Origin: a virus
Reading direction: 5' to 3' (one strand)
DNA: 51,500 nt
Virus record (IMG/VR): IMGVR_UViG_3300021446_000092
Span: 1-51,500 of that record
In this document: positions 3,605 through 51,500 of the stretch, piece by piece
Numbering within the stretch: the first letter of the stretch is position 1
How the letters are laid out: each line of letters opens with the position of its first letter
Notes under the pieces: generated by a model
Database searches by the model: none
Seen by the model: only the letters and a program-made list of their open reading frames with translations
What the model was told of the DNA's origin: nothing
Made by a program: the position numbers and the translations under genes

Positions 3605-3675
3605 CTCAAGTTCACCTTCTACACTCTACACTTGCATACGGAGGGTAATAAAGGTTTGCTTGGGGCAAATTCTCC
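3605..3675 (-). promoter_or_regulatory. Promoter + leader cassette (drives vWA operon)
   Basis: In gene direction: GAATTTGCCCCAAGCAAACCTTTATTACCCTCCGTATGCAAGTGTAGAGTGTAGAAGGTGAACTTGAG-ATG. TATA-like TTTATTAC lies about 48 nt upstream of the ATG, SD-like GGTGA about 12 nt upstream. Confidence 0.75.
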
Positions 3676-3707
3676 AGAAATAGAACGTTTTGAACCGTGA
3701 AGCGCCG

Positions 3708-4643
3708 CTACTCTACGATGCGGATTTCTGCGGCGTCCCGCTCCCCGAGTAGCTCGGCCACCATCCGGCTGTCCCGCGTCTCGCTCCCGCCGTCCTCGCC
3801 GTCCGCGCTGGAGCCGCCAGCCGCGGCGTCCGTGTCCTCGGCTTCCTCCGGGTCGAAGTCCGAATCGTCCGGGGCCTCGTCCGGGTCGAAGTGCCCGCGC
3901 TCCAGATCCTCCATAATCTCCTCGATGAGGTCACGGAGGAAGTCCGGCAGGTCCGGCGTCTCCGGGATGACCTCACGGAGACGGTCCACGACTTCGTGGG
4001 CCATCTCCTCGCGGCGGTCCGGGTCCTGGGTCTGCTTGACTTGCTCCGCCAGCGGGGCAATGTCCATCAGCGCCTCGCGGACTTCCGGGTCGGCGTCGTT
4101 GATGCCCTTGACTCTGCCCGCGAACGCGAGTTGAGTGAATCCCTCGACGGCCTGCTTCCGCGGCGGGATCTCACTCATCGGCGGGCGCATCTCATCGTCC
4201 TCCATGAGGCTCTGAATCGCCCAGTTGTGGACCTTCTTGAGTCCGCGGTACTTCCGGTGCCGGTTGTAGTCGATGTAGTTGTCCTCCAGAATGTTCATCG
4301 CCATTCCGGCGAGCTTCGCGTAGCCGTCGTCGTGTTGCTCCATGAACTCCCGCTTGCCCTCGATTTTGGAGTCGTTGTGGTGCTGAACCTCGTGGGAAAG
4401 CGTGTCCACGAGGAGCCGGAGCGCGTGCGCGCCGGTCGCGTCGTGGTACTTCCACGGCGCGTTCACGTCGAGGTAGACCGCGCGGGTCCCGTCCGGATCC
4501 GTATTGGCGTGGGCCGTCTCATCCGTCCAGCGGACTTCGATGGGGCCGTCGTCGCCGTCGTAGTAGTTCTGCGCGAGGTTCGTCAGGAGCCGCTTCAGGG
4601 CCTTGCTCTGTTCCAGCGCGTCGTCGGGTTTGGTATCGCTCAT
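3708..4643 (-). CDS. HExxH zinc metallopeptidase-like protein
   Basis: 311 aa with motif SHEVQHH and an acidic C-terminus. The ATG directly follows a cassette. Its neighbour is a vWA protein, resembling split DUF2201-type peptidase+vWA proteins. Confidence 0.85.
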   Translation of the reverse strand: MSDTKPDDALEQSKALKRLLTNLAQNYYDGDDGPIEVRWTDETAHANTDPDGTRAVYLDVNAPWKYHDATGAHALRLLVDTLSHEVQHHNDSKIEGKREFMEQHDDGYAKLAGMAMNILEDNYIDYNRHRKYRGLKKVHNWAIQSLMEDDEMRPPMSEIPPRKQAVEGFTQLAFAGRVKGINDADPEVREALMDIAPLAEQVKQTQDPDRREEMAHEVVDRLREVIPETPDLPDFLRDLIEEIMEDLERGHFDPDEAPDDSDFDPEEAEDTDAAAGGSSADGEDGGSETRDSRMVAELLGERDAAEIRIVE

Positions 4644-10598: not shown

Positions 10599-11361
10599 CG
10601 CCGCCGCCGTTCTGGAAGCCGTCGCGTGGGTCGCCACCGGCTACGTCCTGTCTTCCACGCTGGCGCGCATGGCGTTCTCCCGCCCGGCGCTCCCGCCGTA
10701 CAAGCCGCCGGAGATGGTCGCCGAGCTATGGCGGGTCGGCGCGGCGCTCCATATCTACCCGGATCCGGCGCTCCCGTGCGGGTGCCCGGCGTCGTGGCAG
10801 GACGTGTCAATCGTGTCCGACCGGGACCCAGACGGAACGGTGTACAGCACGATAGGCGCGTTCTCCAACGCGGACCGCGAATACAATCAGGTCCGGACCG
10901 TGGCGGAGGAAGGCGGCGGACTGAAAATCAGGGAAGTGGGAGAACAGACACACAGTTGCCGGATCTGCGGCGGGCGGTGGGTTGAACCGGCGGAGCGCCC
11001 CGACTCCCTCCGCCCCGGACGCCCCGTAGAGCCGGTTGCGGTCCCGAAGCCTACCCCAAGCGAGAAAATGAGAGCCTTACCGGCGGACTGGACGCGGCTG
11101 GACCGTGTACTGAATGAGGAGGCAGGCCAAGTGTCGGAGTACGTCCGCGACGACACCTGGGAGGCGTTCATCGAGGTGTTCGACGCCTCGGACCCGAACA
11201 ACGAGTACCAGCCGGAGCTTGGCCCGGTCTGTGCGGTTCTTCTCACCGGAGATCCGGATAGCGGTGTCTGGGAACGGGACACGGAGTACGGGGACAGCCG
11301 TACTGAGGCGGCAAAACGACTAATGCGGAGGTACAACGATGGAGCGTATGGCACGCAATGA
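10591..11361 (+). CDS. Hypothetical protein (256 aa)
   Basis: Long ORF with a hydrophobic N-terminus, an internal CRICGG and an acidic C-terminal half. Confidence 0.8.
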   Translation: MSDAAAVLEAVAWVATGYVLSSTLARMAFSRPALPPYKPPEMVAELWRVGAALHIYPDPALPCGCPASWQDVSIVSDRDPDGTVYSTIGAFSNADREYNQVRTVAEEGGGLKIREVGEQTHSCRICGGRWVEPAERPDSLRPGRPVEPVAVPKPTPSEKMRALPADWTRLDRVLNEEAGQVSEYVRDDTWEAFIEVFDASDPNNEYQPELGPVCAVLLTGDPDSGVWERDTEYGDSRTEAAKRLMRRYNDGAYGTQ

Positions 11362-11494
11362 CAGACACAAGTGCCCGAAGGACGGGTGCGGCGGAACGCT
11401 CCAGCACACGGGCGAGAAGCGAGAGCTATACGGCGGCCACCACGTCTCCGTCATGGAGTGCGGCCTGTGTGGAACGGAGGTGGAACGCGGATGA
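11348..11494 (+). CDS. Zinc-ribbon protein (48 aa)
   Basis: MARNDRHKCPKDGCGG...MECGLCGTEVERG. Lies in the third frame, missed by the track. TGATG junction to the next ORF. Confidence 0.5.
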   Translation: MARNDRHKCPKDGCGGTLQHTGEKRELYGGHHVSVMECGLCGTEVERG

Positions 11495-11673
11495 GCAGAT
11501 GGGTGCTTTCCCGCCGGGCGAACGCGATGGCGACCGGGTGGCTCATCTACTCCGCCCTCGCCTACGGGTGGGCGCGCGACCACGTCCCGCTCCCGCTCCT
11601 GCTTACGGCGGGCGTCGTCCTGTTCACCGCGGAGACGCACCGCTACATGACGGGAGGGTACGACGGTGAGTAG
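11491..11673 (+). CDS. Small membrane protein (60 aa)
   Basis: MSRWVLSRRANAMATGWLIYSALAYGW...LLLTAGVVLF; two hydrophobic segments. Confidence 0.55.
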   Translation: MSRWVLSRRANAMATGWLIYSALAYGWARDHVPLPLLLTAGVVLFTAETHRYMTGGYDGE

Positions 11674-11699
11674 CCGCGTGCTGGCCGTGGGGCAGAGCG

Positions 11700-12149
11700 G
11701 TGACTGACCTGTCGGACTTCAACGGCGGGATCCAGCCGCCGGACCCGCCGCAGATCAAGATGGTCAAGAAGGTCCCGCTGGCGTTCGGCGAGAACCGTAA
11801 GACAGCGGGCTGGATAGGCCCCGTTCCGGAGCGGAAGGCGCTCGGCTTCGTCACAAAGCGGGACTCGCAGGAACACCGGATCCGCGCGCTCAACGCCTAC
11901 AGCATCTCGGAGAAGGTGTTAAAGCGGCTGACCGCACAGGACGTGCAGGTCGTTCTCATCCACGAGAAGGACCGCGACCGCGTGCTGGAGTACACGCTTC
12001 AGCAGTTCCGGGACGCCGATAACGTCCCGGAAAAGTACCTGATGCGGCCGGACGACCCGCAACGCTTCGTCCGGCTCCGCGGGGCCGATAGCTGGCATCA
12101 CGCCGATACGCTCTACATCCCGCGCGACGAACCTATCGAGTATGGGTGA
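11700..12149 (+). CDS. Hypothetical protein (149 aa)
   Basis: GTG start with coding-like composition. Confidence 0.8.
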   Translation: MTDLSDFNGGIQPPDPPQIKMVKKVPLAFGENRKTAGWIGPVPERKALGFVTKRDSQEHRIRALNAYSISEKVLKRLTAQDVQVVLIHEKDRDRVLEYTLQQFRDADNVPEKYLMRPDDPQRFVRLRGADSWHHADTLYIPRDEPIEYG

Positions 12150-12807
12150 GACTGTCATCGAGGCGTTTGAGCGGCTGGCGCGCGAAATCCTCGACGCGCC
12201 GGAGGTGACGCCGGATCTCTCCCCGGTGAGTACCACCGTCTACGTCAAACACCACGGCGGTAAGGGGAAGCTCCGCGAACTGGAGAAGGCCCACTTGGAC
12301 GCGGAGATGGTCGGCTTCCCCGCGTCGGACAAGCTCATCGACATAGAGGTGTCGGAGGTAGAGTACGTCATCTCGGGCGACCCGCACGACCCGTACGAAC
12401 CGCCGCCATCTACGCCGGCCAGCGGCGGCTCAGGCGGCTCCGGCGGATCCGGGGGCGTTCCGTCCGACCCGCCCGCGGAGGACAGCGAGGAGCGCGAGAC
12501 GGCCGCGGAGGGTCCGGCACGCCCAGACCCGACGCTCTATGAGCGGTGGGAGCAGGCCGACGACAAGATTCACGTCGCCGCCGGATCATGGCTTGGAGAC
12601 GCAGACCACCGGCAGGACTACGAGGACGGGACCGAGAAGTACGTCCACGCCGAGGGGCCGGAGCCGACCGGGCCGCCTGACGGCCGGATAGATGACGGGT
12701 GGGAGTCCCTCACCGACTTTGCGGAGGACTCAAAGACCTGCCCCGCCTGCTCAGAAGCGATAGCCGACTACTACAACCTGCCGGAATGGAAGGTAAAAAA
12801 TGGGTAA
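12142..12807 (+). CDS. Hypothetical protein with GS-rich linker and C-terminal CPxC family motif
   Basis: C-terminus GWESLTDFAEDSKTCPACSEAIADYYNLPEW matches the motif of the paralogues at 374-1930. Confidence 0.85.
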   Translation: MGETVIEAFERLAREILDAPEVTPDLSPVSTTVYVKHHGGKGKLRELEKAHLDAEMVGFPASDKLIDIEVSEVEYVISGDPHDPYEPPPSTPASGGSGGSGGSGGVPSDPPAEDSEERETAAEGPARPDPTLYERWEQADDKIHVAAGSWLGDADHRQDYEDGTEKYVHAEGPEPTGPPDGRIDDGWESLTDFAEDSKTCPACSEAIADYYNLPEWKVKNG

Positions 12808-17217: not shown

Positions 17218-17508
17218 ATGGAACACAAAGTCCACCGCGACGTGTCGGACGAGGAAAAGCGTCTCTGGTCGGAGTTTCAGGACGCGCTCGAAGCCTCAGA
17301 CTTCGAGAAGGTTTCCGTGACCGAGGTCGCCGTCCAGCGGGTCGGGATCCACGAGACGCGGTCGCGGCAAATCGTCTCCACGTGGGAGAACGAGGGGCTG
17401 GTCATTTCCGGAGGGGCCGGGTCGTATGACCACGCCGCGCTAACCGAGTACGGCCGGCAGGTGGACAGCATCGTTTCGACCAACACGGGCGGCGAGTCCT
17501 GGCGTTAG
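17218..17508 (+). CDS. Winged-helix-like DNA-binding protein (96 aa)
   Basis: MEHKVHRD...VSVTEVAVQRVGIHETRSRQIVSTWENEGLVIS resembles an HTH/wHTH regulator. Confidence 0.8.
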   Translation: MEHKVHRDVSDEEKRLWSEFQDALEASDFEKVSVTEVAVQRVGIHETRSRQIVSTWENEGLVISGGAGSYDHAALTEYGRQVDSIVSTNTGGESWR

Positions 17509-17586
17509 GACTCCCCCCGTTCTGCGGCGGGCCTGATGGGACGGCCCGGGGTTCGACTCCCCGGCAGGCCCCTCCCCGTCCGGGAG
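17508..17586 (+). ncRNA. tRNA-like minihelix element (acceptor-like stem + T-arm) followed by a small hairpin
   Basis: GGGCCUG(17529-35)/CAGGCCC(17565-71). CCGGGG(17546-51)-UUCGACU-CCCCGG(17559-64). CUCCC(17572-76)/GGGAG(17582-86). No D or anticodon arms. Confidence 0.5.
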
Positions 17587-34190: not shown

Positions 34191-34544
34191 TTACGGCTCT
34201 TGGACCGGAAACTCCCCAGACCAGATCTGCTTTTCATCACTCCCGTCGTCGTCGACGACCAGCCGTTGCCACAGCGTCTCCCCGCCGAGGTCCGAGGTAA
34301 CGTCCTGAGCGATATGAACGTTGACGCGGCCCGCCGCCGCGTCTACGACCGTCACATCTACCCCCGTGGAACTGTCCGAAAGCGTCGCCCGGCTCCCGTC
34401 CGCGCCGCGGCGCGGGAGCAGGTACCACTCCACCGTCGAGTTGTCAAGCGGCTTCGCCGTCCCGTCCGCCTGCTCGATGGTAAACTCCCACGTTACGTTC
34501 TCCCCAGCGACGTAATCACGGAACGGCTCAATGGAGTGCGTCAC
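34191..34544 (-). CDS. Hypothetical beta-rich protein (117 aa)
   Basis: ATGA-coupled to the upstream repeat protein. Confidence 0.75.
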   Translation of the reverse strand: MTHSIEPFRDYVAGENVTWEFTIEQADGTAKPLDNSTVEWYLLPRRGADGSRATLSDSSTGVDVTVVDAAAGRVNVHIAQDVTSDLGGETLWQRLVVDDDGSDEKQIWSGEFPVQEP

Positions 34545-36379
34545 GCCGAATCCTCCTCGTTCATGGTCCGCTCAACGGAGCCGTCCCACGTAAGCGTTCG
34601 TACGGTGAACGGGGCAGAGACGAGCGCCCGGGGGAGGTTCGACCGCGCTACCGCCAGCGTCCGGGCCGGCGTTGCCGCCGCCGAGACGCCGCGGCTGACC
34701 GCCGGGTCGGCCACGAGGACTCGGGCGATGCTGTAGGCGAGCGGCGCGGACCCGCTCCCCTCCCCAACGCCAGCCGCGTTCAAGCCGGCAGTCCGGGATA
34801 CCCTGGCCGCGCCGGATCCGGTAGCCGTCCCGGTGGCGTCGAAGGGGCGCGAACGGACGGGCGTCGCCGTCCCGACCGCCGCGCCGCTCCCCGTAGCGGT
34901 CAGCGGGCGATAGCGGTCCAGCGCCGCCGCCCCGGCCGCGGCCGAGATCCCCGCGCCCAAGAGCGTCCGACTGCGGAATAGCCCCGCCGCGCCGTCACCC
35001 GCCGCAACGCCGCCGCCGGACAAGGCGCGCTCCCGGCGGGGTTGAGCCGCCCCGCTCCCGACGCCGCTCCCCGCGGCGCTCAGGCCGCGGGTGAACAGTA
35101 TGACAGCGTCGCCAGTCGCCGTCCCGGCCCCGGCCGCCGTAAGGGGGCGGGCAACTACGACGGCCGCGGAGCCGACGCCTGTGCCGGCCCCACTCCCGGC
35201 GAGCGGGCGGACTCTGGTCACGTCCGCCGCGCCAGTTCCTATCCCGTCACCCCCCGCGTCGAGTGCCCGCGGCCGGAGTAGCGCCGCCGTCCCACTTCCC
35301 GCGCCGGAGCCAGCGGCGGTGACAAAGCGTGGGCGGGTCACGACGGCCGTCCCGTCGCCGGCCGCCGTGCCGCTCCCGGCGAGGAGGCGGGCCAGCGTTA
35401 CGAGCGCCGTTCCCGACCCGGAGCCAGCGCCGGCCGCTGTGAGGGTGCGAACTGCGGAGGCAGTTGCCGCCCCCGCGCCCGTCCCGACTCCGCTCGCGCT
35501 CGTGAAGCGCGGACGGAGGATAGCCGCCGCTCCAGCGCCCGCGCCGCTCCCGGACCCGGCCAGCCCGCGCGTGAGGGTGGCCTGCGCGCCACCTGCGCCG
35601 TTCCCCGCGCCGCTCCCCGTGACGGACCGCTGGCGGAGCGCATCCGCTGTCCCATCCGCTCTCCCGCTCCCCGCGGCCGTCAGCAGGCTGGCGCGTGTGA
35701 GAGCGGCGGACCCGCTCCCGACGCCGCTCCCCGTAGCGGTGAGGGAGACGGCGGCCGACCCGAGGAAGTCGCCGCCGAGCGCATCCCAGTAGCCTACATC
35801 GCCGACAGATCCCGAATAGAGGCCAATACCGCTCCCGGTCCACGGTGTATCCGAGTCGCTGGCGCTGAGAGTCCCAATCTGGTCGCCGGTATCGTGGTCG
35901 TAAACCGTCGCGTCGATGTTCCCGGACGAGTCCCACGTCACGGAGATCCGGGCCGGGTTTCCGCGGATGTCCGCCGAGAGGGTGACGCTGTCTAGGAGCG
36001 TCCGAGAGCCGGCGTCATGGCGGTATATGCGGGCCTCGTTGATCTTGTTCGAGCCGTCGTGGGGATGAACCGTGACGGAGTAGCCGTCGTCTGGGTTCCC
36101 CTCGCCGCCGAAAATAACGCCCGGCGAGCTAAACGTCACGACGAAGCTATTATCGTCGTACTGAGCAGTAGCGACTATCTTGATGGTGTCGCCCGGCGAC
36201 GGGTAGGCGTCCAGACCGGAGTACGACTGGTGATAGTTCGACTCGGCAGTGGAGGCAATCTTCGCCGCGTAGCTCCCATCAACGTTGTGAACCGTCGCGC
36301 GCTCCAGATCACTCGGTGTTGAATACTCGGAAAAGTCAGAGTCCTCGTACGAGTCCAGAACGTCGTAAGAGACGGGCAT
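34541..36379 (-). CDS. Lectin-like N-terminal domain + about 17 tandem 20-aa Gly/Ala repeats (612 aa)
   Basis: The N-terminus is paralogous to 13781..14554. The repeat consensus is roughly L-x-A-A-G-S-G-x-G-x-G-x-A-x-x-x-R-x-R-x. Confidence 0.85.
   Translation of the reverse strand: MPVSYDVLDSYEDSDFSEYSTPSDLERATVHNVDGSYAAKIASTAESNYHQSYSGLDAYPSPGDTIKIVATAQYDDNSFVVTFSSPGVIFGGEGNPDDGYSVTVHPHDGSNKINEARIYRHDAGSRTLLDSVTLSADIRGNPARISVTWDSSGNIDATVYDHDTGDQIGTLSASDSDTPWTGSGIGLYSGSVGDVGYWDALGGDFLGSAAVSLTATGSGVGSGSAALTRASLLTAAGSGRADGTADALRQRSVTGSGAGNGAGGAQATLTRGLAGSGSGAGAGAAAILRPRFTSASGVGTGAGAATASAVRTLTAAGAGSGSGTALVTLARLLAGSGTAAGDGTAVVTRPRFVTAAGSGAGSGTAALLRPRALDAGGDGIGTGAADVTRVRPLAGSGAGTGVGSAAVVVARPLTAAGAGTATGDAVILFTRGLSAAGSGVGSGAAQPRRERALSGGGVAAGDGAAGLFRSRTLLGAGISAAAGAAALDRYRPLTATGSGAAVGTATPVRSRPFDATGTATGSGAARVSRTAGLNAAGVGEGSGSAPLAYSIARVLVADPAVSRGVSAAATPARTLAVARSNLPRALVSAPFTVRTLTWDGSVERTMNEEDSA
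34718..35749 (-). repeat. In-frame tandem repeat region (period about 57-60 nt) inside CDS 34541..36379
   Basis: Protein residues about 211-554 parse into about 17 units such as LTAAGSGAGSGTAALLRPRA and LAGSGAGTGVGSAAVVVARP. Confidence 0.8.
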
Positions 36380-40012: not shown

Positions 40013-40242
40013 GTCTCCACCTCCCCATCCGCGGCGCGCCTCCGGCACCACCAGCAGACGTAGCGGCCCTTTGTCCCCAGGTCCCGGTACTCCGTCCGCG
40101 GCCGGCCGCAGTCCGGACAGGGGGCGAGGAGCGTGTGGTACTCCATATCGTTCATCAGGACGCGGCCGTACTCCTTCGTCCACTCGTACTCTGGGGCGGC
40201 GCACTTGTAGCAGTCGCAGGGCACCGGAGCGGAGGCGGCCAT
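40009..40242 (-). CDS. Zinc-ribbon protein (77 aa)
   Basis: CDCYKC...CPDCG...CWWC. TGATG-coupled to the methyltransferase gene. Confidence 0.65.
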   Translation of the reverse strand: MAASAPVPCDCYKCAAPEYEWTKEYGRVLMNDMEYHTLLAPCPDCGRPRTEYRDLGTKGRYVCWWCRRRAADGEVET

Positions 40243-40742
40243 CACAGGTCTGCCCCCGTCAGGACGGTTCCCATTTCGTCCAGCGCGTCGAAGTACGCCG
40301 GGGGGAAGTCGCCATACGAGGCGATTCCAGACGGGAACGTGGCGTTGTTCTCCCCGCCGATGAACGAGACGCGGCCGCGGATGAGCGTCAGGTAGTCCGC
40401 CTTCGCGTAGTAGTCCTGAAACCAGCCCGTGTCCGCTGATACCGGGATGAGCGCGGTAAGGGTGTCCGCCCGGCCGCTGTCGTACTCGTTGAACGCCTTG
40501 CGCGCCCAGCGCGGGTTCTCGGTCCGGCCGTAGGGAGGGTTCAGCCACACGTCGCCGTACCACGCCAGCGCCAGCCCGTCGTCCGCCTTGGTGTAGCGGT
40601 CCTCGGCGTATGGCTCCGGCTCCGCGCCCGCCGCCGGATCCAAGTCAAAGCCCCCGACGGCGTCCGCCAGCGGCCGGACGTACTCGGGTGGCGTCCCCCA
40701 CTCCACGCCCGCGTCGGACTCGTCGTAGTGGCCGTCACTCAT
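40242..40742 (-). CDS. DNA N6-adenine methyltransferase (phage Dam-like)
   Basis: 166 aa. Catalytic NPPYG motif (WLNPPYGR) and an overall layout like small phage Dam enzymes. Confidence 0.85.
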   Translation of the reverse strand: MSDGHYDESDAGVEWGTPPEYVRPLADAVGGFDLDPAAGAEPEPYAEDRYTKADDGLALAWYGDVWLNPPYGRTENPRWARKAFNEYDSGRADTLTALIPVSADTGWFQDYYAKADYLTLIRGRVSFIGGENNATFPSGIASYGDFPPAYFDALDEMGTVLTGADL

Positions 40743-41771: not shown

Positions 41772-42395
41772 TCAGGAGATGAGTCCGGCGTTCCGTGCAA
41801 TCGTGGCGGCGTTTGCGTCCAAGTCGTCCGGGTCCTCGTTGTGCAGGACGTGGATGAAGTCCCGGTCCATCCAGCCCTCATACTTCGTCCGGCGGCCCTT
41901 CAGCCACGTTTCATCCTGGTCATCGCCGCGCGCGTCATGCCGCTTGTTCAGGTCCTCCTCGGGAGCGTCGAGGACGTAGCCCCGGAAGCGCGTGTTGGGG
42001 AGGGTCTGGACGTGGTTGACGAAACGGTCGGACCACAGCCTATCACCCTCGTACAGGACGGTGTTGAACGGGCGGTCAAACGGGTTCCGGGCGGCGTGGT
42101 TAAGGAAGTCCTCCACGTCGTCGGTGACGGCCATGCTCAGGGTGTCTGTGCCTTCGCGCTCGTCTTCGCCGTAGCGGCCGAGGACGGCGAGCTTCTCGTC
42201 GTGGTAGAGTTGGCCTGCAAGGAGTCCCCAGTTGAACACCTCGAACGCGCCGGCCCACCGGAGAACGTGTTTCATCAGGGTGGACTTGCCGGTCGCAGGT
42301 TCCCCGCCGACGCCGATAACGTACAGGAGCGGGCCGTCAGTATCGGTCCCAGGGTCCGGCTGGTCCGGGGCGTCACCGGGTCCGTCGTCGGTCAT
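41772..42395 (-). CDS. P-loop kinase-like protein (207 aa), candidate DNA 5-hydroxymethyluracil kinase
   Basis: Walker A GVGGEPATGKST in a small kinase-sized protein. ATGA-coupled within the modification cluster. The substrate is inferred from context only. Confidence 0.8.
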   Translation of the reverse strand: MTDDGPGDAPDQPDPGTDTDGPLLYVIGVGGEPATGKSTLMKHVLRWAGAFEVFNWGLLAGQLYHDEKLAVLGRYGEDEREGTDTLSMAVTDDVEDFLNHAARNPFDRPFNTVLYEGDRLWSDRFVNHVQTLPNTRFRGYVLDAPEEDLNKRHDARGDDQDETWLKGRRTKYEGWMDRDFIHVLHNEDPDDLDANAATIARNAGLIS

Positions 42396-42715
42396 ACGTG
42401 TTCCTCCGCAAGAGCGCGCAGGTCCTCCATTCCGGGGACGGTATCGACCCACTCGATGGTGGTAGCGCCGCCGTGGCCGTGGACTTCCAGCGCGTCTTCG
42501 ACGCCGTCCTCGGAGTGATAGGATGCAAAGCCGTTGCGCCCGGTCTGTACGCTGTCGTTCTCGTGGTTGAGCCATTGGAGGTCAACGGCTCCGTCCGGCC
42601 AGCGGACGCCTACTGCGACGGTGCCTGTACCGCTGACGCCGCTCTCATCGGTGGTCCGGACGAGCTTGAAGCGGAGCGGTAGGTTGGTGTCGGCTTGTGG
42701 GTGTTCTTCTGTCAT
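42392..42715 (-). CDS. Hypothetical protein (107 aa) in modification cluster
   Basis: Coupled ORF with no recognisable motif. Confidence 0.7.
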   Translation of the reverse strand: MTEEHPQADTNLPLRFKLVRTTDESGVSGTGTVAVGVRWPDGAVDLQWLNHENDSVQTGRNGFASYHSEDGVEDALEVHGHGGATTIEWVDTVPGMEDLRALAEEHV

Positions 42716-42772
42716 CCCGTGGGGGAGTACGGGGCGGGGGAGTAAGAGCGTGGGGGAAACGCGGGGCTGGAT

Positions 42773-43747
42773 TCACCAGAGGTTCAGGAGCCGCAGGGCA
42801 CGTCTGGCGCATATCGGGGCCAGTAGCAGGCCGACGCGGTGGCCGCCCGTAGCGACGACGCCGGAGGGAAGGTCAGAGCGGATCTGTTCGACCGTGATGG
42901 TATCGCATACGGGACGAACGCCGTCCTGCACTTCTGCGAGGTCGTAGTCTCCGACGATTTCCCCGGCCTTCTTCATCGCGCGGTTCAGTTCAGCTTCGTT
43001 CCCGCCGAGGTCCTGTTCGGTGGTGTCCCCGAAGCGGTACTTATCCCGGTACGGCCGGAGCGTGAGGTGGGAGTACGGCCGCGGGTAGATGGTGTGGGGC
43101 GTGCTGTCCGGGATAGACTCGGGGAGCGCGTCCTTGGTCTCGTCGTAGGCGCGCGGCGGGTCCTCGTCGTAGTCGTGCGGTTCTACGAGCAGGGCGCGGC
43201 CGCGGAGCGGTTCGACGCCGACCGTGGGAAGGTCGGAGGCGCGGAGTAGGTCGTCGGTCCAGGCTCCGGCGGCGACGAGCAGGTTGTCGCATGTCGCGGG
43301 CGGTTCGCGGTCCCCGGTGAAGTGGACGGCCCAGTCCGGTCCATCCTCCTGTGGTGTGGGGGAGATGCGGCCGACTTCCTTCTCGGTGACAGGCTGGAGG
43401 GTGAGGAGTTGACTGCATTCCTCGATGAGGTAGCAGTCGTCCCGAAACTCGCCGTCCTTGCCCTGGAAGGACGTGTATAGCTCGCCGGTATCAAGGAGGT
43501 TCACGCGCCCGTCAAGCCAGTCCACGGCCCATTCGGGGTAGGACTCGTCCCACCAGTCCGGGAGCATCTTGGAGGTGGTGACGCTCTCGTACCACCACAG
43601 TTGGATGATGCCGGCGGCGACCTGCGACGCGCCGAGGTCGTGGTCCGCGTCCCAGATGGTCACGTCGTAGCCGCGCTCCACGGCCATCTGGGCGGCGGTC
43701 ATCCCCCAGAAGCCGCCGCCGATGATGCCCAGGTCTGCGTCCGTCAT
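42773..43747 (-). CDS. FAD-dependent oxidoreductase, D-amino-acid/glycine oxidase (DAO) family
   Basis: N-terminal LGIIGGGFWGMTAA...DVTIWD (GxGxxG, beta-alpha-beta). LLVAAGAWTDDLL...VEPLRGRALL. C-terminal VVATGGHRVGLLLAP. Confidence 0.9.
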   Translation of the reverse strand: MTDADLGIIGGGFWGMTAAQMAVERGYDVTIWDADHDLGASQVAAGIIQLWWYESVTTSKMLPDWWDESYPEWAVDWLDGRVNLLDTGELYTSFQGKDGEFRDDCYLIEECSQLLTLQPVTEKEVGRISPTPQEDGPDWAVHFTGDREPPATCDNLLVAAGAWTDDLLRASDLPTVGVEPLRGRALLVEPHDYDEDPPRAYDETKDALPESIPDSTPHTIYPRPYSHLTLRPYRDKYRFGDTTEQDLGGNEAELNRAMKKAGEIVGDYDLAEVQDGVRPVCDTITVEQIRSDLPSGVVATGGHRVGLLLAPICARRALRLLNLW

Positions 43748-43890
43748 TCAGCCACCTCGATGGCGGTGTATTCGATTTCTGTCAGCCGGTCCAGTTCGTC
43801 GCCGTGGGTCTGGTTTACGTGTTCCATGTGTCCGTCGAAGCTGAAGTTGATGTACGGGCAGAGCGGGCAGGTCAGGACCGTTTCAGTCAT
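43744..43890 (-). CDS. C2H2-like zinc-finger peptide (48 aa)
   Basis: CPLCPYINFSFDGHMEHVNQTH. ATGA-coupled on both sides. Confidence 0.5.
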   Translation of the reverse strand: MTETVLTCPLCPYINFSFDGHMEHVNQTHGDELDRLTEIEYTAIEVAE

Positions 43891-44825
43891 ACGTTCACCC
43901 CGCCGGGAGTGGGCGCGTCGTCCGGGAGCGTGGGGACGTTCTCTTGGTGTTCCCACCAGCGTATCAGGCCGTCGTCGGCGTAGAGGCGCTGAAGGTCGGA
44001 GCGGACGCCGCTCCAGCCGTGCGCCTCCCCGAGAAAGATGTGGGGGAATACGTCGGCGCGGGCTTCCCACCAGACGGGCGGCGCGAAGTCCAGTTGGTTC
44101 CCGTACAGGTCTATGTCGTGGCCGACGTAGTAGTGGCCCTTGACGGCGGAGTTGAAGTCGCACAGGCACGTCTCCATCTGGTCCAGCCCGGAGAACTGCA
44201 CGCCCTCGTGTCGGCAGTCCGCGAGCATCTGTTTCTGGAGGCTCACGTCGTTGGCGCACCGCTTCCAGTCCTCCCCGGTTATCTTGACCATCCCGGGGAT
44301 GGGGCCGGCGGTCTTGGACTTCCCGCCGACGCCGATGTCGGAGGCGGTGATGGGGTAGTCCATGACGTGGGCGAGCAGATCCGCCCACTTGTAGGATGCC
44401 CACGGGCCGTTCCACGGGACGCTTTCGTACTGGTCCCGGGCTTCGTCCCACCCCTTCTCTCCCTCCAGCGTGTTCCACAGCGACGGCTCCAGCAGGCCCG
44501 TCTCGACGGTCTGCTTGACGTTCTTGAGCGCCGGGGACGGCTGGCCGCGGAAGCACCTGCGCTCGGTCCCTGTCGGTAGTGCAAGCTCTGACTTTGGCGG
44601 GACGGTCGGCTCCGGGTAGTCCTGCCACAGCGTCATCGCGCTCCCGACGTGGTAGAACGTGGTGTACAGGTAGAGCCTCCAGAGCCGCGCTTGCTCACCG
44701 AGGTCCTGAAGCTCGAACACCCGCTTGAACCACGGGTATATCGGGTCCACGTCCCATGACCAGAGGTGCCAGCGGCTCCACTCGCAGAAGTCCTTGAACA
44801 GGTCCGGGTCGTAGTCTATCTCCAT
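43887..44825 (-). CDS. Trp-rich protein of unknown function (312 aa), candidate base-hypermodification transferase (aGPT-Pplase-like) by context
   Basis: Long ORF between the dioxygenase and the FAD oxidase. I recognise no motif, so the function is inferred from gene neighbourhood only. Confidence 0.85.
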   Translation of the reverse strand: MEIDYDPDLFKDFCEWSRWHLWSWDVDPIYPWFKRVFELQDLGEQARLWRLYLYTTFYHVGSAMTLWQDYPEPTVPPKSELALPTGTERRCFRGQPSPALKNVKQTVETGLLEPSLWNTLEGEKGWDEARDQYESVPWNGPWASYKWADLLAHVMDYPITASDIGVGGKSKTAGPIPGMVKITGEDWKRCANDVSLQKQMLADCRHEGVQFSGLDQMETCLCDFNSAVKGHYYVGHDIDLYGNQLDFAPPVWWEARADVFPHIFLGEAHGWSGVRSDLQRLYADDGLIRWWEHQENVPTLPDDAPTPGGVNV

Positions 44826-44841
44826 CCCCAGCGCCTCCGGG

Positions 44842-45831
44842 TCAGTCCCCGCCCGCGGAGTAGTCCCGCTGGCTTGGCTGTTCTTCCGCCGCGCCCAGTT
44901 CGTCCGGGTCGTCCGCGTAGTCGCGGATCTCCTTGGCGCGCTTCAGTTCTTCTTCGGGCGTCCCGCACTCGGCCATCTCCTCGCGGTAGTACAGGACGAC
45001 GCTCAGGCGCTCGTAATAGCCGTCGCTGGAGTGGAACGGGCCGTTGCCGTGCCACTCGTGTACGTCGTTCAGGAGAACGTCGCCGGCCCGGGCGTCGTAC
45101 GCCATCCCGAACTTCGGCTCGATGAAGTACGCCCCCTCGTAGTCGCCTGCGTCGATGACCGGCATGACGCCGAAGCCTTCCTCGTAGTCGCCGGAGTCGG
45201 TGTGAAGCGCGGTCTGCCAGTTCAGGTTGACGGTGACGGTGGTGAAGGGCGTCCCGGAGATAACCCAGTCGTCCACCGTCTCCTTGGCGACGGCGTTCTG
45301 TCGCTCGTACCGCTCCGGGACGTACTCCGCGAAGGCGTCCCCGGCCCGCTGGAAGAACGGGATTGCGCGGGCGAATTTCTTCGGGTTGTTCACGTTGTAG
45401 GCGGTCTGTCGGCAGTACGGGATCCGCGGGTAGCGGTCGTAGTAGCCGGCGATGCCGGTGTTCGGTTCCATCTCCGGCTTCACCTGCGTCGTCTTACTGA
45501 CCGACCCATCCTCCTTGACCCGCTTCTCGCGGCTCCCCTTCCCGGTCGCCATGCCGCGGTTGACGGAGCCGGTGAACGCCGCGGGGCGGAGCGCCTTGTA
45601 CGCCTCGATACACTTCTCCTGTTCGATGTAGTCGTGGAGGTAGACCGCCAGTATGTCGCCGTTCGGCTTGTACACGATGGCGGAGCCGGTCGTCTCTCCG
45701 GAGATGAGCGTGTCCCAGTCGTCGTCCGTCAGTTTCTCCCCGGCCATCGCCTCCACGTCCTCGTCGGCCATGCAGTCCGATTCCTCCAGCCGGATCTCAG
45801 TCAGTCCGTCGTCGCGTTCAGCCCGCTCCAT
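44842..45831 (-). CDS. 2OG-Fe(II) dioxygenase, probably TET/JBP family
   Basis: Facial triad candidates ALHTDSGD (HxD) and VHEWHGNG (distal His), then RLSVVLYYR (RxS 2OG-binding pattern), with spacing typical of the double-stranded beta-helix. Confidence 0.85.
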   Translation of the reverse strand: MERAERDDGLTEIRLEESDCMADEDVEAMAGEKLTDDDWDTLISGETTGSAIVYKPNGDILAVYLHDYIEQEKCIEAYKALRPAAFTGSVNRGMATGKGSREKRVKEDGSVSKTTQVKPEMEPNTGIAGYYDRYPRIPYCRQTAYNVNNPKKFARAIPFFQRAGDAFAEYVPERYERQNAVAKETVDDWVISGTPFTTVTVNLNWQTALHTDSGDYEEGFGVMPVIDAGDYEGAYFIEPKFGMAYDARAGDVLLNDVHEWHGNGPFHSSDGYYERLSVVLYYREEMAECGTPEEELKRAKEIRDYADDPDELGAAEEQPSQRDYSAGGD

Positions 45832-46595
45832 TAGTCGCCAGCCTCCAGCAGTTCCGCCTCGCCCTCGTCCATCTCTGCGCGCTCCGACTCCCGGCGGACC
45901 GCTTCCTCCACGGCGTCGCTCGTGGTGTCCAGGTCGTACTCCCGCTTGAGGGTCGTGACGCGCTCTTGGAACGTTTGCTTGGCGTCCTCGGTCATGAACA
46001 GTTGGACCATCGCGGTGGCGGTCGTCTCCCCGAGGTGTTCCATCGACCGCGGTGTGGTGTCGTCCTCGCTGTCGGCGGCGTCCGCGGATCCGCTGTCGGC
46101 GTCCGCGTCGGTGTCCTCCGCGTCGGCGTCCGCGTTCTCGCTGTCGGCGTCGCCGCCGGACTCCAGCAGTTCCTCCGGGTCCATCTTCGTTGCGAGGTTC
46201 TGGGCGAGGTCCTGGGGCGCGTAGAAGTCCACCTTGAACCGGGACACGTCGATGTCGTACTTGTCCATCAGTTCCGCCACGCGCTCCTCGTCGTAGGACC
46301 CGGCGCGGTCGTTGTCCGCCATCGCTATCTCCATCATCTCGTCCTCGTCCTCCGGGTCCACGACAGACACGTAGGCTTCCTCCCGGCCCATCTCACGCAT
46401 CGTCTTGAGGCGCTGGTTGCCGCCGATGACGGTCCCGTCGCCGGTGACGATGAGCGGCTTGAACTGACCGTGCGCCTCCAGATGCTTCCGGAGCCGCTCC
46501 AGGTCAGCGTCGTTGACTTCCCGCGGGTTGTCGTCCCACAGTTCGAGGTCGGCCACGTCCGCGTAGGTCTTGCCGCCTTCTTGTCGCGTCTCCAT
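45831..46595 (-). CDS. ParB-like nuclease/N-terminal domain protein with poly-acidic linker
   Basis: ATG 46595 (METRQEGG). LELWDDNPREVNDADLERLRKHLEAHGQFKPLIVTGDGTVIGGNQRL matches the ParB/Srx fold signature. Confidence 0.85.
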   Translation of the reverse strand: METRQEGGKTYADVADLELWDDNPREVNDADLERLRKHLEAHGQFKPLIVTGDGTVIGGNQRLKTMREMGREEAYVSVVDPEDEDEMMEIAMADNDRAGSYDEERVAELMDKYDIDVSRFKVDFYAPQDLAQNLATKMDPEELLESGGDADSENADADAEDTDADADSGSADAADSEDDTTPRSMEHLGETTATAMVQLFMTEDAKQTFQERVTTLKREYDLDTTSDAVEEAVRRESERAEMDEGEAELLEAGD

Positions 46596-46807
46596 AGTCG
46601 GCTGAATGACCGCTGGACGCTTAGAATTTCGGGTTGCGCGGGTCTGTGTGGTTTGCGGCGGTTCTAAACTATCTGCGTTGGTCTGCACGGCTGAGTCCTG
46701 AACAGCTAATAAGTGAAAGAACAAATTGAAACAAATTAGTGGGTATATACTAAGGTAGGATACCCTGCAAGGTATAATTGCCTCCAGGGGTGGAGGCGTG
46801 AATCGCT
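46596..46807. promoter_or_regulatory. AT-rich divergent intergenic control region
   Basis: Separates the minus operon (46595 leftwards) from the plus gene at 46808. Contains aataagtgaaagaacaaattgaaacaaattagtgggtatatactaagg...ggtataattg and the hairpin CCTCCA-gggg-TGGAGG next to the ATG. Confidence 0.5.
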
Positions 46808-47437
46808 ATGTCCAGCGAGCAACAGCAGAGGATCCGGCGGGGGGATGCCATCCGGCAAACTTCCACGGACTACGACACAGACGCACAGGCAGAGGTAGCC
46901 GAAGCAATCGCGGAGCAATGGGGCGAAGGCGAAAGCGTGTCGGACATCGCGGATGCCGCGGGCCGCTCGCCCTCGTTTACGCGCGTGTCTCTCAACGAGT
47001 ACTTCGAGGTCGTTGAGAGGGGGGATAACCCCGCGGACCAGCGCGTCGAAGGCGAAGGCGAGGGAGAAGCCACGGCGGCCGGGGGCGCGGAGGTTGACGA
47101 GGACCGGGTCGCGCTCCTAGCGGACTGGTACGGCGTGTCGGAAGAGAAGGCCCGCACGCTCGCCGCCGCGGAGGCGCAGACCGGCATCGAGCTTCGCGGT
47201 GACGAGCGCGTTGGGCACCCGGAGACGGACCCGAACGCGCGGGCGGGAGATGAGCCGGATGGGGATCCGGAGCCGAGCGAGGAGGGAGATGCAGAGCCGG
47301 AGCAGGCGGCCGCGGGCGCGATGCAGAAGTCCGCGGAGGTACGGCCCGTCGAGAACGTTCCGGCGACCGAGGAGGCGATGCAAGCGTACCGGCTTGGCTT
47401 CCAAGACGGCTTCGCGGCCGGGAGGGAGATGGAGTAA
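46808..47437 (+). CDS. Acidic hypothetical protein (209 aa), possible HTH
   Basis: Acidic ORF. ESVSDIADAAGRSPSFTRVSLNEY is HTH-like. Confidence 0.8.
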   Translation: MSSEQQQRIRRGDAIRQTSTDYDTDAQAEVAEAIAEQWGEGESVSDIADAAGRSPSFTRVSLNEYFEVVERGDNPADQRVEGEGEGEATAAGGAEVDEDRVALLADWYGVSEEKARTLAAAEAQTGIELRGDERVGHPETDPNARAGDEPDGDPEPSEEGDAEPEQAAAGAMQKSAEVRPVENVPATEEAMQAYRLGFQDGFAAGREME

Positions 47438-51473: not shown

Positions 51474-51500
51474 CTCAAGTTCACCTTCTACACTCAACTC
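51474..51500 (-). promoter_or_regulatory. Leader part of the promoter cassette, cut by the window end
   Basis: Identical to nt 1-27. Confidence 0.7.

Follow-up and report, generated by a model that had tools for sequence, protein, structure and literature searches.

Thymidine hypermodification in bacteriophages

In Pseudomonas phage PaMx11 thymidine hypermodification proceeds from 5-hmdU through 5-PmdU, Nα-GlyT and 5-NmdU to 5-AcNmdU (Lee et al. 2021, PMC8989533), and structures of the gp46-gp49 pathway have been described (Wen et al. 2024, PMC11472151). ParB-dependent T-dioxygenases have been demonstrated experimentally and are associated with kinase and AADT genes (O'Toole et al., PNAS 2026, PMC13229309), with the characterized enzymes of 5mYOX clade C1 coming from bacteriophage metaviromes (PMC13229309). 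A module in Rhodococcus phage Tonitrus has been annotated as a thymidine hypermodification system (PMC11955845); the literature searched reports no chemistry for this module or for that of Microbacterium phage Kozie. The exact module analysed below has already been described bioinformatically in bacteriophages.

The window and its gene string

The stretch of DNA analysed here (51,500 nucleotides, the window) is a metagenomic contig and not an isolate. Judged by homology, it represents the nearly complete genome of a siphovirus of the Haloarcula type, a tailed archaeal virus that is Saparoviridae-like. Comparison with Haloarcula hispanica tailed virus 2 (HHTV-2, Saparoviridae) shows that 37 of the 58 ORFs of the window have collinear homologues in that virus, with identities of 84% for the capsid, 79% for the terminase and 77% for an Acb5-like protein, and these similarities bear out the archaeal-virus origin proposed in the original prediction. 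That prediction also described a minus-strand string of seven genes running from 46595 to 41772; all seven ORFs are present at exactly those positions, each starts with ATG, and the motifs quoted for them are real. The features are as follows.

46700..46760, minus strand: AT-rich promoter-like region (TATA-like TTAGTATATA; 28% G+C)
45831..46595, minus strand: ParB-like protein, 254 aa (PHROG ParB families, AF2/Foldseek)
44842..45831, minus strand: predicted TET/JBP dioxygenase, 329 aa (Pfam PF12851)
43887..44825, minus strand: predicted amino-acid:DNA transferase (ADDT/AADT, formerly aGPT-Pplase2), 312 aa (Pfam PF18724)
43744..43890, minus strand: C2H2-like zinc-finger ORF, 48 aa (weak Pfam matches)
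42773..43747, minus strand: short FAD oxidoreductase of the PaMx11 gp47 type, 324 aa (DAO, 8z2o/8z79)
42392..42715, minus strand: Acb5-family protein, 107 aa (PF26761, phrog_7499)
41772..42395, minus strand: P-loop kinase, 207 aa (Walker A, phrog_800)
46808-47437, plus strand: divergent HTH gene, sharing the AT-rich region with the operon

The genes are closely packed. The ParB stop and TET start overlap by 1 nt (TAATG), and 4-nt ATGA overlaps are present at the transferase/zinc-finger and zinc-finger/FAD junctions, with a further ATGA overlap between the 107-aa ORF and the kinase; the TET and transferase genes are separated by 16 nt, and the FAD and 107-aa genes by 57 nt. Upstream of the operon, between it and the divergent HTH gene, is a 50-nt block (46700-46749) of 28% G+C, compared with about 65% for the genome, which contains TTAGTATATA and is part of a putative promoter region (46700..46760). 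Packaging genes start directly downstream of the cassette. We also note that its neighbours include an Acb5-type anti-CBASS gene and a Dam methyltransferase, and constitute an anti-defence neighbourhood.

Predicted functions of the gene products

The ParB/Srx fold predicted for 45831..46595 is backed by profile and structural comparisons. PHROG ParB families are matched at 1e-20 to 1e-22, and the protein's own Pfam ParB_N score is weak and sub-threshold (16.5 bits). The AF2 model has an N-terminal nucleotide-binding domain (residues 1-115, pLDDT >85), short helices (130-147), a disordered acidic linker (147-200) and a two-helix C-terminal domain (203-246), with no HTH DNA-binding domain in the model; the best Foldseek matches are to M. 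xanthus ParB with a bound CTP analogue or CDP. The same architecture is reported for 5mYOX-associated ParBs (PMC13229309). A ParB homologue adjoins the TET gene in 75 of 80 IMG/VR loci and in all five halovirus-like loci, and the protein is probably an activator of the adjacent dioxygenase.

The second gene product matches Pfam PF12851 with 85.3 bits (cut-off 34.9; 3.5e-24), and residues H210-x-D212, H258/H261 and R275 are invariant among 36 TET homologues. Its AF2 model (pLDDT 88) has CcTet, CMD1, human TET2 and NgTET1 as its best 26 Foldseek matches, such that Pfam and Foldseek agree with the original assignment to the TET/JBP rather than the prolyl-hydroxylase type. A search of all ORFs of 250 aa or more found no homologue of a C5-methyltransferase or of thymidylate synthase (dUMP hydroxymethylase), and the precomputed Pfam table, which covers the 21-kb cassette locus, lists none either. 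For this reason thymine is favoured as the substrate, with 5hmU formed in situ. The enzyme is thus predicted to oxidize thymine to 5-hydroxymethyluracil on DNA, although sequence alone does not separate T from 5mC as the substrate.

The 312-aa protein scores 29.0 bits against Pfam PF18724 (ADDT), above the cut-off of 26.2, and aligns with PaMx11 gp46 by hhalign over 223 columns (95.6% probability, E 1e-8). Its profile matches the PDB entries 25qc ('Amino acid:DNA transferase', 4e-9) and 8z2m ('Glycinyltransferase', 8e-6), and it is 32-33% identical to actinophage proteins named 'aGPT-Pplase2'. Ten of the 12 active-site residues of gp46 are kept, among them the catalytic Cys222, the metal ligands E218/T219 and the glycine ligands D27/W142/K146; the gp46 pocket residues K261 and E265 are not conserved. 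A role as the transferase that exchanges the phosphate of 5-phosphomethyl-dU for an amino acid, probably glycine, is predicted. The protein had been proposed as an amino-acid transferase, which agrees with PF18724 and its likeness to gp46, but also as a possible new family with no recognizable motif, whereas PF18724 is a known family.

The enzyme encoded at 42773..43747 matches Pfam DAO at 2.2e-23, consistent with the glycine/D-amino-acid-oxidase family named earlier. With a profile of 36 sequences, the best PDB match is to 8z2o/8z79 ('Flavin-dependent lyase', E 5.4e-21), in which profile positions 2-289 align to chain positions 3-285, and this gp47-type lyase is the best full-length match; glycine oxidases give partial matches of 8e-15 at best, and the family is shorter than the metabolic glycine oxidases. 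Residues W51, Y180 and R242 of gp47 are retained as W52, Y225 and R278, and the changes F52 to Y53, Q182 to H227 and K268 to R304 are conservative, while Y244 differs (V280). Identity to Microbacterium phage Kozie gp3 is 29% over the full length. We predict that this is an Nα-glycinylthymine oxidase/lyase, yielding 5-aminomethyl-dU and glyoxylate.

The kinase carries a Walker A motif (GEPATGKS) and an invariant EGDR motif. It scores 25.4 bits against Pfam Ploopntkinase3, just below the cut-off of 27; of the 52 members of its family, 43 match this profile. The protein also matches phrog_800 (3.3e-9), which includes the validated 5-HMUDKs M6 gp54 (2e-39) and PaMx11 gp49 (5e-30), and hhalign with the kinase family gives 95.9% and 95.6%, respectively. 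There is no match to Pfam HMUDK_HMUD1 at E up to 1, a profile that PaMx11 gp49 itself matches weakly. A 5-hydroxymethyl-dU DNA kinase is predicted, in agreement with the type of P-loop kinase first suggested.

Two ORFs appear to be passengers. The 48-aa ORF and its coupling are real, and its identity as a C2H2-like finger is backed by weak Pfam zinc-finger matches (E 0.01-0.1); no homologue is present in the related loci L004, L007, L008, L009 and L011 or in the phage loci, and it is probably not a core pathway component. The 107-aa ORF was earlier listed as unknown but belongs to a known family, with a precomputed Pfam match to PF26761 (Acb5) and a match to phrog_7499 at 2e-25. Acb5 is an anti-CBASS, cyclic-dinucleotide-cleaving family. 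With this ORF as query, tblastn matches are found in Streptomyces phages and Haloarcula viruses only, the same distribution as in the literature, and it is 77% identical to gp26 of HHTV-2, a virus without the cassette. By its homologies it is an Acb5-type component of the viral backbone and not a pathway step.

Recurrence of the cassette

The ParB-TET-ADDT-(FAD)-kinase arrangement is found again in five more high-GC contigs with acidic proteomes. ParB-TET is present in all five of these halovirus-like contigs, ADDT in four and the kinase in three. The closest relative, L011, has identities of 76% (ParB), 85% (TET), 77% (ADDT) and 67% (FAD), and has no kinase up to the contig end. L007 and L008 carry the same ADDT (66-73% identity) together with a different, uncharacterized Rossmann protein, and L007 also has a GNAT; because these tailoring partners differ, the module is combinatorial. 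Among 80 IMG/VR bacteriophage metavirome loci, ParB is present in 75, ADDT in 54 and the kinase in 55. All five genes are present in 10 of the 80, nine with the ParB–TET–ADDT–FAD–kinase order of the window and one with another order, in viruses that span 27% to 73% G+C. This recurrence, in five contigs and most of the 80 loci, argues that the gene string is not a chance assembly.

A proposed pathway and its alternatives

Given the observed family memberships, conserved catalytic residues, gene order and recurrence, the operon is likely to be a post-replicative thymidine-hypermodification cassette of a Haloarcula-type virus, following the route T to 5hmdU to 5-PmdU to Nα-GlyT to 5-NmdU. The chemical steps, the choice of amino acid, the need for ParB and the biological role are inferred as follows. 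Thymine in the viral DNA would be converted to 5-hydroxymethyl-dU by the TET/JBP dioxygenase, activated on double-stranded DNA by the co-translated ParB-like protein that lacks a DNA-binding domain. The P-loop kinase would phosphorylate the hydroxyl to give 5-phosphomethyl-dU; Cys222 of the ADDT would then attack C6, the phosphate would be expelled, and an amino acid, most likely glycine, would be attached through its amino group to form Nα-glycinylthymidine. Oxidation of the N-Cα bond by the gp47-like flavoenzyme, followed by hydrolysis, would release glyoxylate and leave 5-aminomethyl-dU. No acetyltransferase is present in the window, and 5-NmdU is therefore the predicted end product. The modification, if made, would protect the DNA from host restriction or from other nucleases. 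The original prediction had the same outline (5hmU made in situ, phosphorylation, amino-acid transfer and trimming by the FAD enzyme), as homology to the biochemically established pathway of PaMx11 gp46, gp47 and gp49 also predicts, and the searches place neither the dioxygenase in a non-nucleic-acid clade nor the kinase and 312-aa protein among unrelated functions.

Since K261 and E265 of gp46 and Y244 of gp47 are not conserved, the donor amino acid and the final base are both tentative assignments. A pathway with the same start could lead to a different product, possibly an undescribed adduct, through a non-glycine amino acid or amine or through another oxidation by the FAD enzyme. Donors do vary in the ADDT family (glycine in M6 and PaMx11, others in other phages), identity to gp46 is about 23% with two pocket residues differing, Y244 and Q182 of gp47 are replaced across the whole subfamily, and in L007 and L008 the same ADDT is accompanied by other tailoring proteins. 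We nonetheless regard this as unlikely, as the glycine contacts of gp46 (D24, W146 and K150) are all conserved, the FAD family finds its best full-length PDB match in the Nα-GlyT lyase, and R242, which binds the carboxylate, does not vary.

It is considerably less probable that the pathway is cytosine-based, with 5mC from a host methyltransferase oxidized to 5hmC by the dioxygenase and elaborated by the kinase, transferase and flavoenzyme. In other clades phage TET homologues do act on 5mC, the characterized T-dioxygenases also oxidize 5mC iteratively in vitro, and most of the structural neighbours found in the PDB act on 5mC. However, there is no C5-methyltransferase in the window and none among the genes called in the five halovirus-like loci, published 5mC-type phage TETs adjoin C5-MT and glycosyltransferases rather than ParB, kinase and AADT (PMC13229309), and ADDT, the gp47-like lyase and 5-HMUDKs are characterized on uracil-derived bases only.

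We give least credence of all to a set of neighbours without a common pathway (ParB in partition or as a nuclease, the kinase as a nucleotide kinase or small terminase-like factor, the FAD enzyme acting on small-molecule amino acids). In its favour, the cluster is directly upstream of packaging genes and holds the unrelated Acb5 and zinc-finger passengers, and phrog_800 and the RefSeq M6 gp54 entry carry the label 'terminase small subunit'. That label is known to be wrong, however, since biochemistry has established M6 gp54 and PaMx11 gp49 as DNA kinases. The ParB also lacks a DNA-binding domain, the five genes co-occur from 27% to 73% G+C with the same order in 9 of 10 loci, and the FAD family, whose proteins are shorter than the metabolic glycine oxidases, best matches a DNA-acting lyase.

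Comparison with known systems

The putative thymidine-hypermodification cassette occupies a slot upstream of the packaging genes that in HHTV-2 likewise opens with a ParB gene, although the two ParBs differ (30% identity over the nucleotide-binding domain). HHTV-2 lacks the TET, ADDT, FAD lyase and kinase, and its slot has a TET-associated glycosyltransferase (Pfam TAGT, 2e-30).

PaMx11 shares with the window an ADDT (both PF18724), a short FAD lyase and a phrog_800 P-loop DNA kinase in nearly the same order, at sequence identities of about 23-25%. It differs in that 5-hmdU is made before replication by a dUMP hydroxymethylase, a thymidylate-synthase homologue, in place of which the window has the TET/JBP dioxygenase and ParB; the window also has no acetyltransferase, and its host is archaeal. 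In 5mYOX clade C1, as here, TET/JBP is immediately 3' of a ParB without a DNA-binding domain, composed of a nucleotide-binding domain, disordered linker and C-terminal domain, and the neighbourhood contains a P-loop kinase and AADT, without C5-MT and often beside terminase. The best structural matches are also alike: MxParB for the ParB and, for the dioxygenase, members of the TET family, human TET2 among them. ParB dependence is experimental in clade C1, and by this likeness would extend to the window.

Kozie gp1-gp4 have an identical TET-ADDT-FAD-kinase order followed by terminase, with identities of 29% (TET), 33% (ADDT), 29% over the full length (the gp47-like FAD enzyme) and 27% (kinase), but no ParB adjoins the TET. 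Tonitrus gp1-gp8 include ParB, TET, ADDT and kinase, but with another tailoring protein (gp8) that matches those of L007 and L008 and not that of the window. Both modules are at the packaging end of the genome, as in the window, although the hosts are bacterial. The shared order in nine of the 80 metavirome loci and in Kozie makes this a known kind of cassette, so that the original view of a pathway uncharacterized in an archaeal virus stands for the host but not for the module, which is known from bacteriophages. The novelty lies in the archaeal host and in the sharing of the module across domains.

Genome context

By gene content and synteny, the window is an almost complete genome of a Saparoviridae-like haloarchaeal siphovirus that is known from metagenomes only. 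The isolated virus Haloarcula hispanica tailed virus 2 (HHTV-2, Saparoviridae; NC_021340) contains collinear homologues of 37 of the 58 window ORFs, with 84% identity for the major capsid protein and 79% for TerL. The window also encodes an archaeal Hjc resolvase, together with portal, prohead protease, tail tube and large terminase proteins; its G+C content is 65% (0.8-0.9 at third codon positions) and its proteome is acidic. The HHTV-2 synteny, the two protein identities, the resolvase and the acidic proteome bear out the archaeal-virus origin given in the original prediction. An ENA contig of 52,983 nt carries an identical TET protein, and the 1,483 nt by which it exceeds the 51,500-nt JGI contig forming the window lie within an AAA ATPase gene spanning the window ends, which is consistent with a circularly permuted genome. 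Three features outside the modification cassette are as follows.

1-373 and 51474-51500 (locus L002, 2772-4193): AAA_5 (MoxR/CobS-like) ATPase, cut by the window ends
17487-17572, plus strand: tRNA-Arg(TCT), in the tail/accessory region
34541-36379, minus strand: 612-aa ORF, Gly/Ala-rich repeat protein, between the packaging genes and the portal gene

The gene at 2348-3604 encodes a VWA protein that pairs with the end-cut ATPase. In the 612-aa ORF, a globular N-terminal part precedes numerous Gly/Ala/Ser/Thr-rich repeats that end in R-x-R-like spacers, and the packaging genes beside it are the large terminase and two small ORFs; in HHTV-2, by contrast, no gene separates terminase and portal. 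This ORF is responsible for a local G+C content of 75%, and a hidden C5-methyltransferase in that block (34.5-36.4 kb) is ruled out, as the block is the repeat protein itself.

Organization of the proposed modification cassette

The seven minus-strand ORFs of the cassette have exactly the coordinates originally proposed and each begins with ATG. They are listed here in the direction of transcription with their predicted products, followed by a methyltransferase gene that lies downstream.

45831-46595, minus strand: ParB-like protein (PHROG ParB families, AF2 model)
44842-45831, minus strand: TET/JBP dioxygenase (Pfam PF12851, fold, Fe(II) residues)
43887-44825, minus strand: 312-aa amino-acid:DNA transferase (ADDT/AADT, formerly aGPT-Pplase2; Pfam PF18724, hhalign to gp46)
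43744-43890, minus strand: 48-aa zinc-finger ORF (weak Pfam support)
42773-43747, minus strand: short DAO-fold FAD enzyme, gp47-type (family profile against PDB)
42392-42715, minus strand: 107-aa Acb5-type anti-CBASS protein (precomputed Pfam PF26761)
41772-42395, minus strand: P-loop kinase, predicted 5-hmdU DNA kinase (Walker A, phrog_800, hhalign)
40242-40742, minus strand: Dam-family N6-adenine DNA methyltransferase (Pfam PF05869, 2.5e-16)

All but one of the six junctions are tight: ParB and TET overlap by one base (TAATG), TET and the 312-aa gene are 16 nt apart, and ATGA overlaps occur at the 312-aa/zinc-finger, zinc-finger/FAD and 107-aa/kinase junctions. The sole larger gap is the 57 nt between the FAD and 107-aa genes. 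Upstream of the operon and facing a divergent HTH gene, positions 46700-46749 have 28% G+C compared with 65% for the genome and include a TATA-like TTAGTATATA, in agreement with the AT-rich region noted at the operon start. The 48-aa zinc-finger ORF has no homologue in any related locus.

The dioxygenase and its ParB neighbour

Pfam PF12851 (Tet_JBP) matches the dioxygenase with 85.3 bits (cut-off 34.9; E 3.5e-24) over positions 2-164 of the 164 in the profile, and H210-x-D212, H258, H261 and R275, which cover the Fe(II) triad HxD...H and the 2-oxoglutarate-binding Arg, are invariant among 36 homologues. When the AF2 model (pLDDT 88, pTM 0.85) is compared with the PDB by Foldseek, ranks 1-26 are taken by CcTet, CMD1, human TET2 (TMq up to 0.64) and NgTET1, with FTO and AlkB far behind at about 1e-7. 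The modelled fold is nearer to nucleic-acid TET enzymes than to protein hydroxylases. The TET/JBP identity first proposed is upheld by the Pfam score, the invariant triad and the uniformly TET-type character of the 26 best structural neighbours, and none of these points to a non-nucleic-acid clade. The protein continues for 40 residues beyond the invariant Cys289, with predicted helices at 284-301 in the model; ParB-dependent T-dioxygenases have a C-terminal extension past the last residue common to both subclasses (C280 of 5mYOX176; O'Toole 2026, PMC13229309), to which Cys289 may correspond.

The adjacent ParB-like protein matches PHROG ParB families at about 1e-21, and its best Foldseek matches are Myxococcus xanthus ParB bound to a CTP analogue or CDP, in keeping with the original family assignment. 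Its AF2 model begins with a confidently predicted nucleotide-binding domain (residues 1-115), continues through short helices and a disordered acidic linker of about 50 residues, and ends in a two-helix C-terminal domain; no HTH DNA-binding domain is present in the model. The ParB activators of a phage thymine dioxygenase subclass have the same architecture and structural neighbour (O'Toole 2026, PMC13229309). The window locus resembles that subclass both in having an adjacent ParB of this domain layout, devoid of a DNA-binding domain, and in its kinase and AADT neighbours without a neighbouring C5-methyltransferase. By this analogy, the window ParB is probably an activator of the adjacent dioxygenase, a role that the original prediction did not specify.

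The kinase, transferase and flavoenzyme

The kinase contains a Walker A motif (GEPATGKS) and an invariant EGDR motif. It scores 25.4 bits with Pfam Ploopntkinase3 (PF18751), below the cut-off of 27, and a Pfam search gave no match to HMUDK_HMUD1 (PF18748). PF18751 is matched by 43 of the 52 members of the kinase family at E values up to 1e-3, and the orthologue in the halovirus-like contig L007 has a strong precomputed match. phrog_800 contains the window kinase along with M6 gp54 and PaMx11 gp49, both biochemically proven 5-hmdU DNA kinases (Lee 2021, PMC8989533), and hhalign comparison of the kinase family gives 95.9% with M6 gp54 and 95.6% with PaMx11 gp49. The Walker A motif, the shared phrog and the hhalign values all favour the predicted kinship with 5-hmdU kinases. 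PDB sequence searches with either the kinase or the dioxygenase alone were uninformative. We note that M6 gp54 (locus L096, 8686-9249) is labelled 'terminase small subunit' in RefSeq, as is phrog_800 itself; this is evidently a propagated mis-annotation, and one that would hide 5-hmdU kinases from automated annotation.

The 312-aa protein was put forward as the transferase and as a possible new family, and only the first of these holds. It matches Pfam PF18724 with 29.0 bits (cut-off 26.2) over profile positions 127-229 only, whereas PaMx11 gp46 scores 97 bits, and it shares 32-33% identity with proteins from actinophages labelled 'aGPT-Pplase2 domain protein', so the new-family claim is refuted. 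Alignment to gp46 with hhalign has 95.6% probability over 223 columns, and a profile search of the PDB finds 'Amino acid:DNA transferase' at 4e-9 and the gp46 'Glycinyltransferase' at 8e-6. Ten of the 12 crystallographic gp46 active-site residues are kept (C222, E218, T219, W142, K146, D27, Y54, Y58, E88 and D237), the two changes being K261 to H and E265 to L. Among the gp46 equivalents are the nucleophile Cys247 (C222 here), the metal ligands E243/T244 and the glycine ligands D24/W146/K150. The PF18724 match and the conserved active site thus support a predicted transferase.

The flavoenzyme belongs to a family of 285-330 aa proteins, the length of PaMx11 gp47 being 286 aa. The family profile matches the gp47 'flavin-dependent lyase' structures 8z2o/8z79 end to end at 5.4e-21, and the next PDB match is a glycine oxidase at 8e-15, partial only. 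The DAO fold and the gp47 match are in line with the glycine-oxidase-like FAD family originally named; over its full length the family matches gp47 better than it matches metabolic glycine/sarcosine oxidases. W51, Y180 and R242 of gp47 are kept, Q182 to H and K268 to R are conservative changes, and Y244 is replaced by V throughout the subfamily. For R242, a role in binding the carboxylate of the glycine adduct has been proposed (Wen 2024, PMC11472151).

Substrate and predicted pathway

Methyltransferases were sought among all window ORFs of at least 250 aa and in the precomputed Pfam table of the 21-kb locus around the cassette. Neither a C5-cytosine methyltransferase nor a thymidylate-synthase-like dUMP hydroxymethylase was found in these two sets, and the only methyltransferase recovered was the Dam-type N6-adenine enzyme. 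A kinase/AADT neighbourhood lacking a C5-methyltransferase is the published mark of T-dioxygenases (O'Toole 2026, PMC13229309). Judged by it, the context indicates in-situ thymine oxidation and not oxidation of 5mC or pre-replicative synthesis of 5-hmdUTP.

A plausible scenario is that the ParB-assisted TET enzyme would convert T in duplex DNA to 5hmdU, which the kinase would phosphorylate to 5-PmdU. Cys222 of the ADDT would then add at C6, the phosphate would leave, and an amino acid, probably glycine, would be captured to give Nα-GlyT. Oxidation of the N-Cα bond by the flavoenzyme, followed by hydrolysis, would yield 5-NmdU and glyoxylate. PaMx11 and L007 have an acetyltransferase and the window does not, and the pathway is accordingly predicted to stop at 5-NmdU. 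We consider it likely that the operon directs thymidine hypermodification of the TET-kinase-ADDT-flavoenzyme type, and we are somewhat less sure of 5-NmdU as the exact product. Homology to solved systems supports the overall interpretation originally offered, with corrections to the transferase family, the 107-aa ORF and the role of ParB.

The modular, combinatorial nature of the cassette and the few pocket residues that differ from gp46 and gp47 leave some room for an ADDT with a different donor or for a different final product, which we regard as plausible but unlikely. A cytosine-based pathway is very improbable: the methyltransferase it would need is missing from the two sets searched, and the substrates known for the enzymes acting downstream do not fit it. 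Least credible is that the genes are unrelated neighbours, given that their order recurs across very different viruses.

Other genes of the operon neighbourhood

The 107-aa ORF, first described as an unknown, belongs to the Acb5 family. It has a precomputed match to Pfam PF26761 (Acb5), is 77% identical to HHTV-2 gp26, and tblastn finds it in Streptomyces phages and Haloarcula viruses only; local Pfam, which is without the Acb5 model, and NCBIfam returned nothing. Acb5 is a cGAMP-cleaving anti-CBASS family with a published distribution of Streptomyces phages and Haloarcula viruses. Because HHTV-2 has gp26 and no modification enzymes, the ORF is best read as a backbone anti-defence gene and not as a step in the modification pathway. 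Its position within the modification operon, with translational coupling to the kinase, suggests that this archaeal virus has an operon of mixed anti-defence function. The Dam-type gene, about 1 kb downstream of the cassette, has no homologue in HHTV-2, and its predicted product would give a second, independent DNA modification.

Related loci

ParB-TET pairs with 45-85% identity are found in five further high-GC, acidic contigs, as follows.

L011 (NCBI LKMJ01003117): ParB-TET-ADDT-FAD
L007: ParB-TET-ADDT-GNAT-309aa-kinase
L008: ParB-TET-ADDT-307aa-kinase
L009: HNH/ParB-TET-Nramp-ADDT-kinase
L004: ParB-TET, Acb5 homologue and weak TAGT-like protein

Beyond these genes, L007, L008 and L009 encode homologues of the small HTH protein found ahead of the packaging genes in the window, followed in L007 and L008 by terminase. 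L007 additionally has a GNAT acetyltransferase. In L009 an Nramp-family metal transporter gene (2557-3819) lies between TET and ADDT, and its product might supply Fe(II) to the dioxygenase. The 309-aa and 307-aa proteins of L007 and L008 were considered as gp47-like and rejected, the alignment being limited to the Rossmann N-terminus. They match gp8 of Rhodococcus phage Tonitrus at about 31% identity, forming a Rossmann-like family of 293-309 aa with an N-terminal GxGxxGS motif (L007, 3211-4140; L008, 4010-4933; Tonitrus locus L013, 3761-4642). This family has no Pfam match and occupies the place of the gp47-like FAD enzyme in the sister haloviral contigs and Tonitrus; it is probably a tailoring enzyme of uncharacterised type. 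In L004 (5739-9165), ParB-TET occurs without ADDT or kinase, and the same region encodes, besides the Acb5 homologue, a protein of 268 aa that weakly matches TAGT (E 1e-3); L004 may thus represent a glycosylating (base-J-like) form of the slot.

More distant relatives come from an alignment-based scan of IMG/VR. The 80 best dioxygenase matches (39-46% identity) are taken as bacteriophages from their G+C contents of 27-62%; 75 have an adjacent ParB, 54 an ADDT and 55 a kinase. All five genes (ParB, TET, ADDT, FAD lyase and kinase) are present in 10 of the 80, nine of them in the window order ParB-TET-ADDT-FAD-kinase, and in the tenth, phage locus L016, FAD and ADDT lie upstream of ParB-TET. The cluster had no megablast match in 50,697 phage records, locus searches of GTDB genomes and IMG/VR with the TET protein alone gave no confirmed relatives, and no provirus copy was found in GTDB species-representative genomes by a search sensitive to close relatives only.

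Comparison with known systems

To our knowledge, thymidine hypermodification has been characterised to date in bacteriophages only, and the only archaeal-virus DNA hypermodification that we know of is 7-deazaguanine in haloviruses. No such cassette was found in the searchable literature on aGPT-Pplase, TET_JBP or hypermodification with archaeal viruses or haloviruses, in accord with the claim that the pathway is uncharacterised in archaeal viruses; unsearched papers may exist.

On balance we favour, with some reserve, a first archaeal-virus thymidine hypermodification that is post-replicative, ParB-activated and TET-initiated and has as its product 5-aminomethyluracil or an allied amino-acid adduct that may be undescribed. 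Haloarchaeal viruses and high-GC actinophages would have the entire module in common, and its slot would be an exchangeable cassette with ADDT/FAD here, ADDT/GNAT/gp8-like in L007, and a glycosyltransferase in L004 and HHTV-2. If true, 5hmU-kinase-AADT chemistry works in hypersaline archaeal hosts, and complete anti-restriction modules pass between viruses of two domains. Salt-adapted forms would also become available of four enzyme types that attract interest for sequencing and DNA-labelling chemistry: a T-dioxygenase activated by ParB, a DNA kinase, a DNA glycinyltransferase and a flavin lyase that acts on DNA.

At the syntenic slot (11128-12790), HHTV-2 differs in having another ParB (gp21) and a TET-associated glycosyltransferase, gp22 (Pfam TAGT, 2e-30), annotated 'beta-glucosyl-HMC-alpha-glucosyltransferase'. 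No TET, ADDT, FAD lyase or kinase was found in the whole HHTV-2 genome, and a check for a divergent TET was also negative up to E 1, which leaves a hydroxymethyl acceptor with no evident source there. The modification slot upstream of the packaging genes is apparently exchangeable in Saparoviridae-like viruses.

Related modules occur in two isolated actinophages: Microbacterium phage Kozie matches the window order with TET-ADDT-FAD-kinase-terminase, and Tonitrus has ParB-TET-ADDT-kinase-gp8, termed a thymidine hypermodification system by its authors (PMC11955845). The downstream chemistry has been solved in PaMx11 and M6 (Lee 2018/2021, PMC8989533; Wen 2024, PMC11472151), TET_JBP-initiated hypermodification variants were previously noted in metaviromes, and a 2026 study described T-dioxygenases that depend on ParB and are associated with kinases and AADTs (O'Toole, PMC13229309). 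The kind of system is therefore already known and no new mechanism is revealed; what the window adds is an archaeal host, the apparently exchangeable slot and a module common to haloarchaeal viruses and actinophages.
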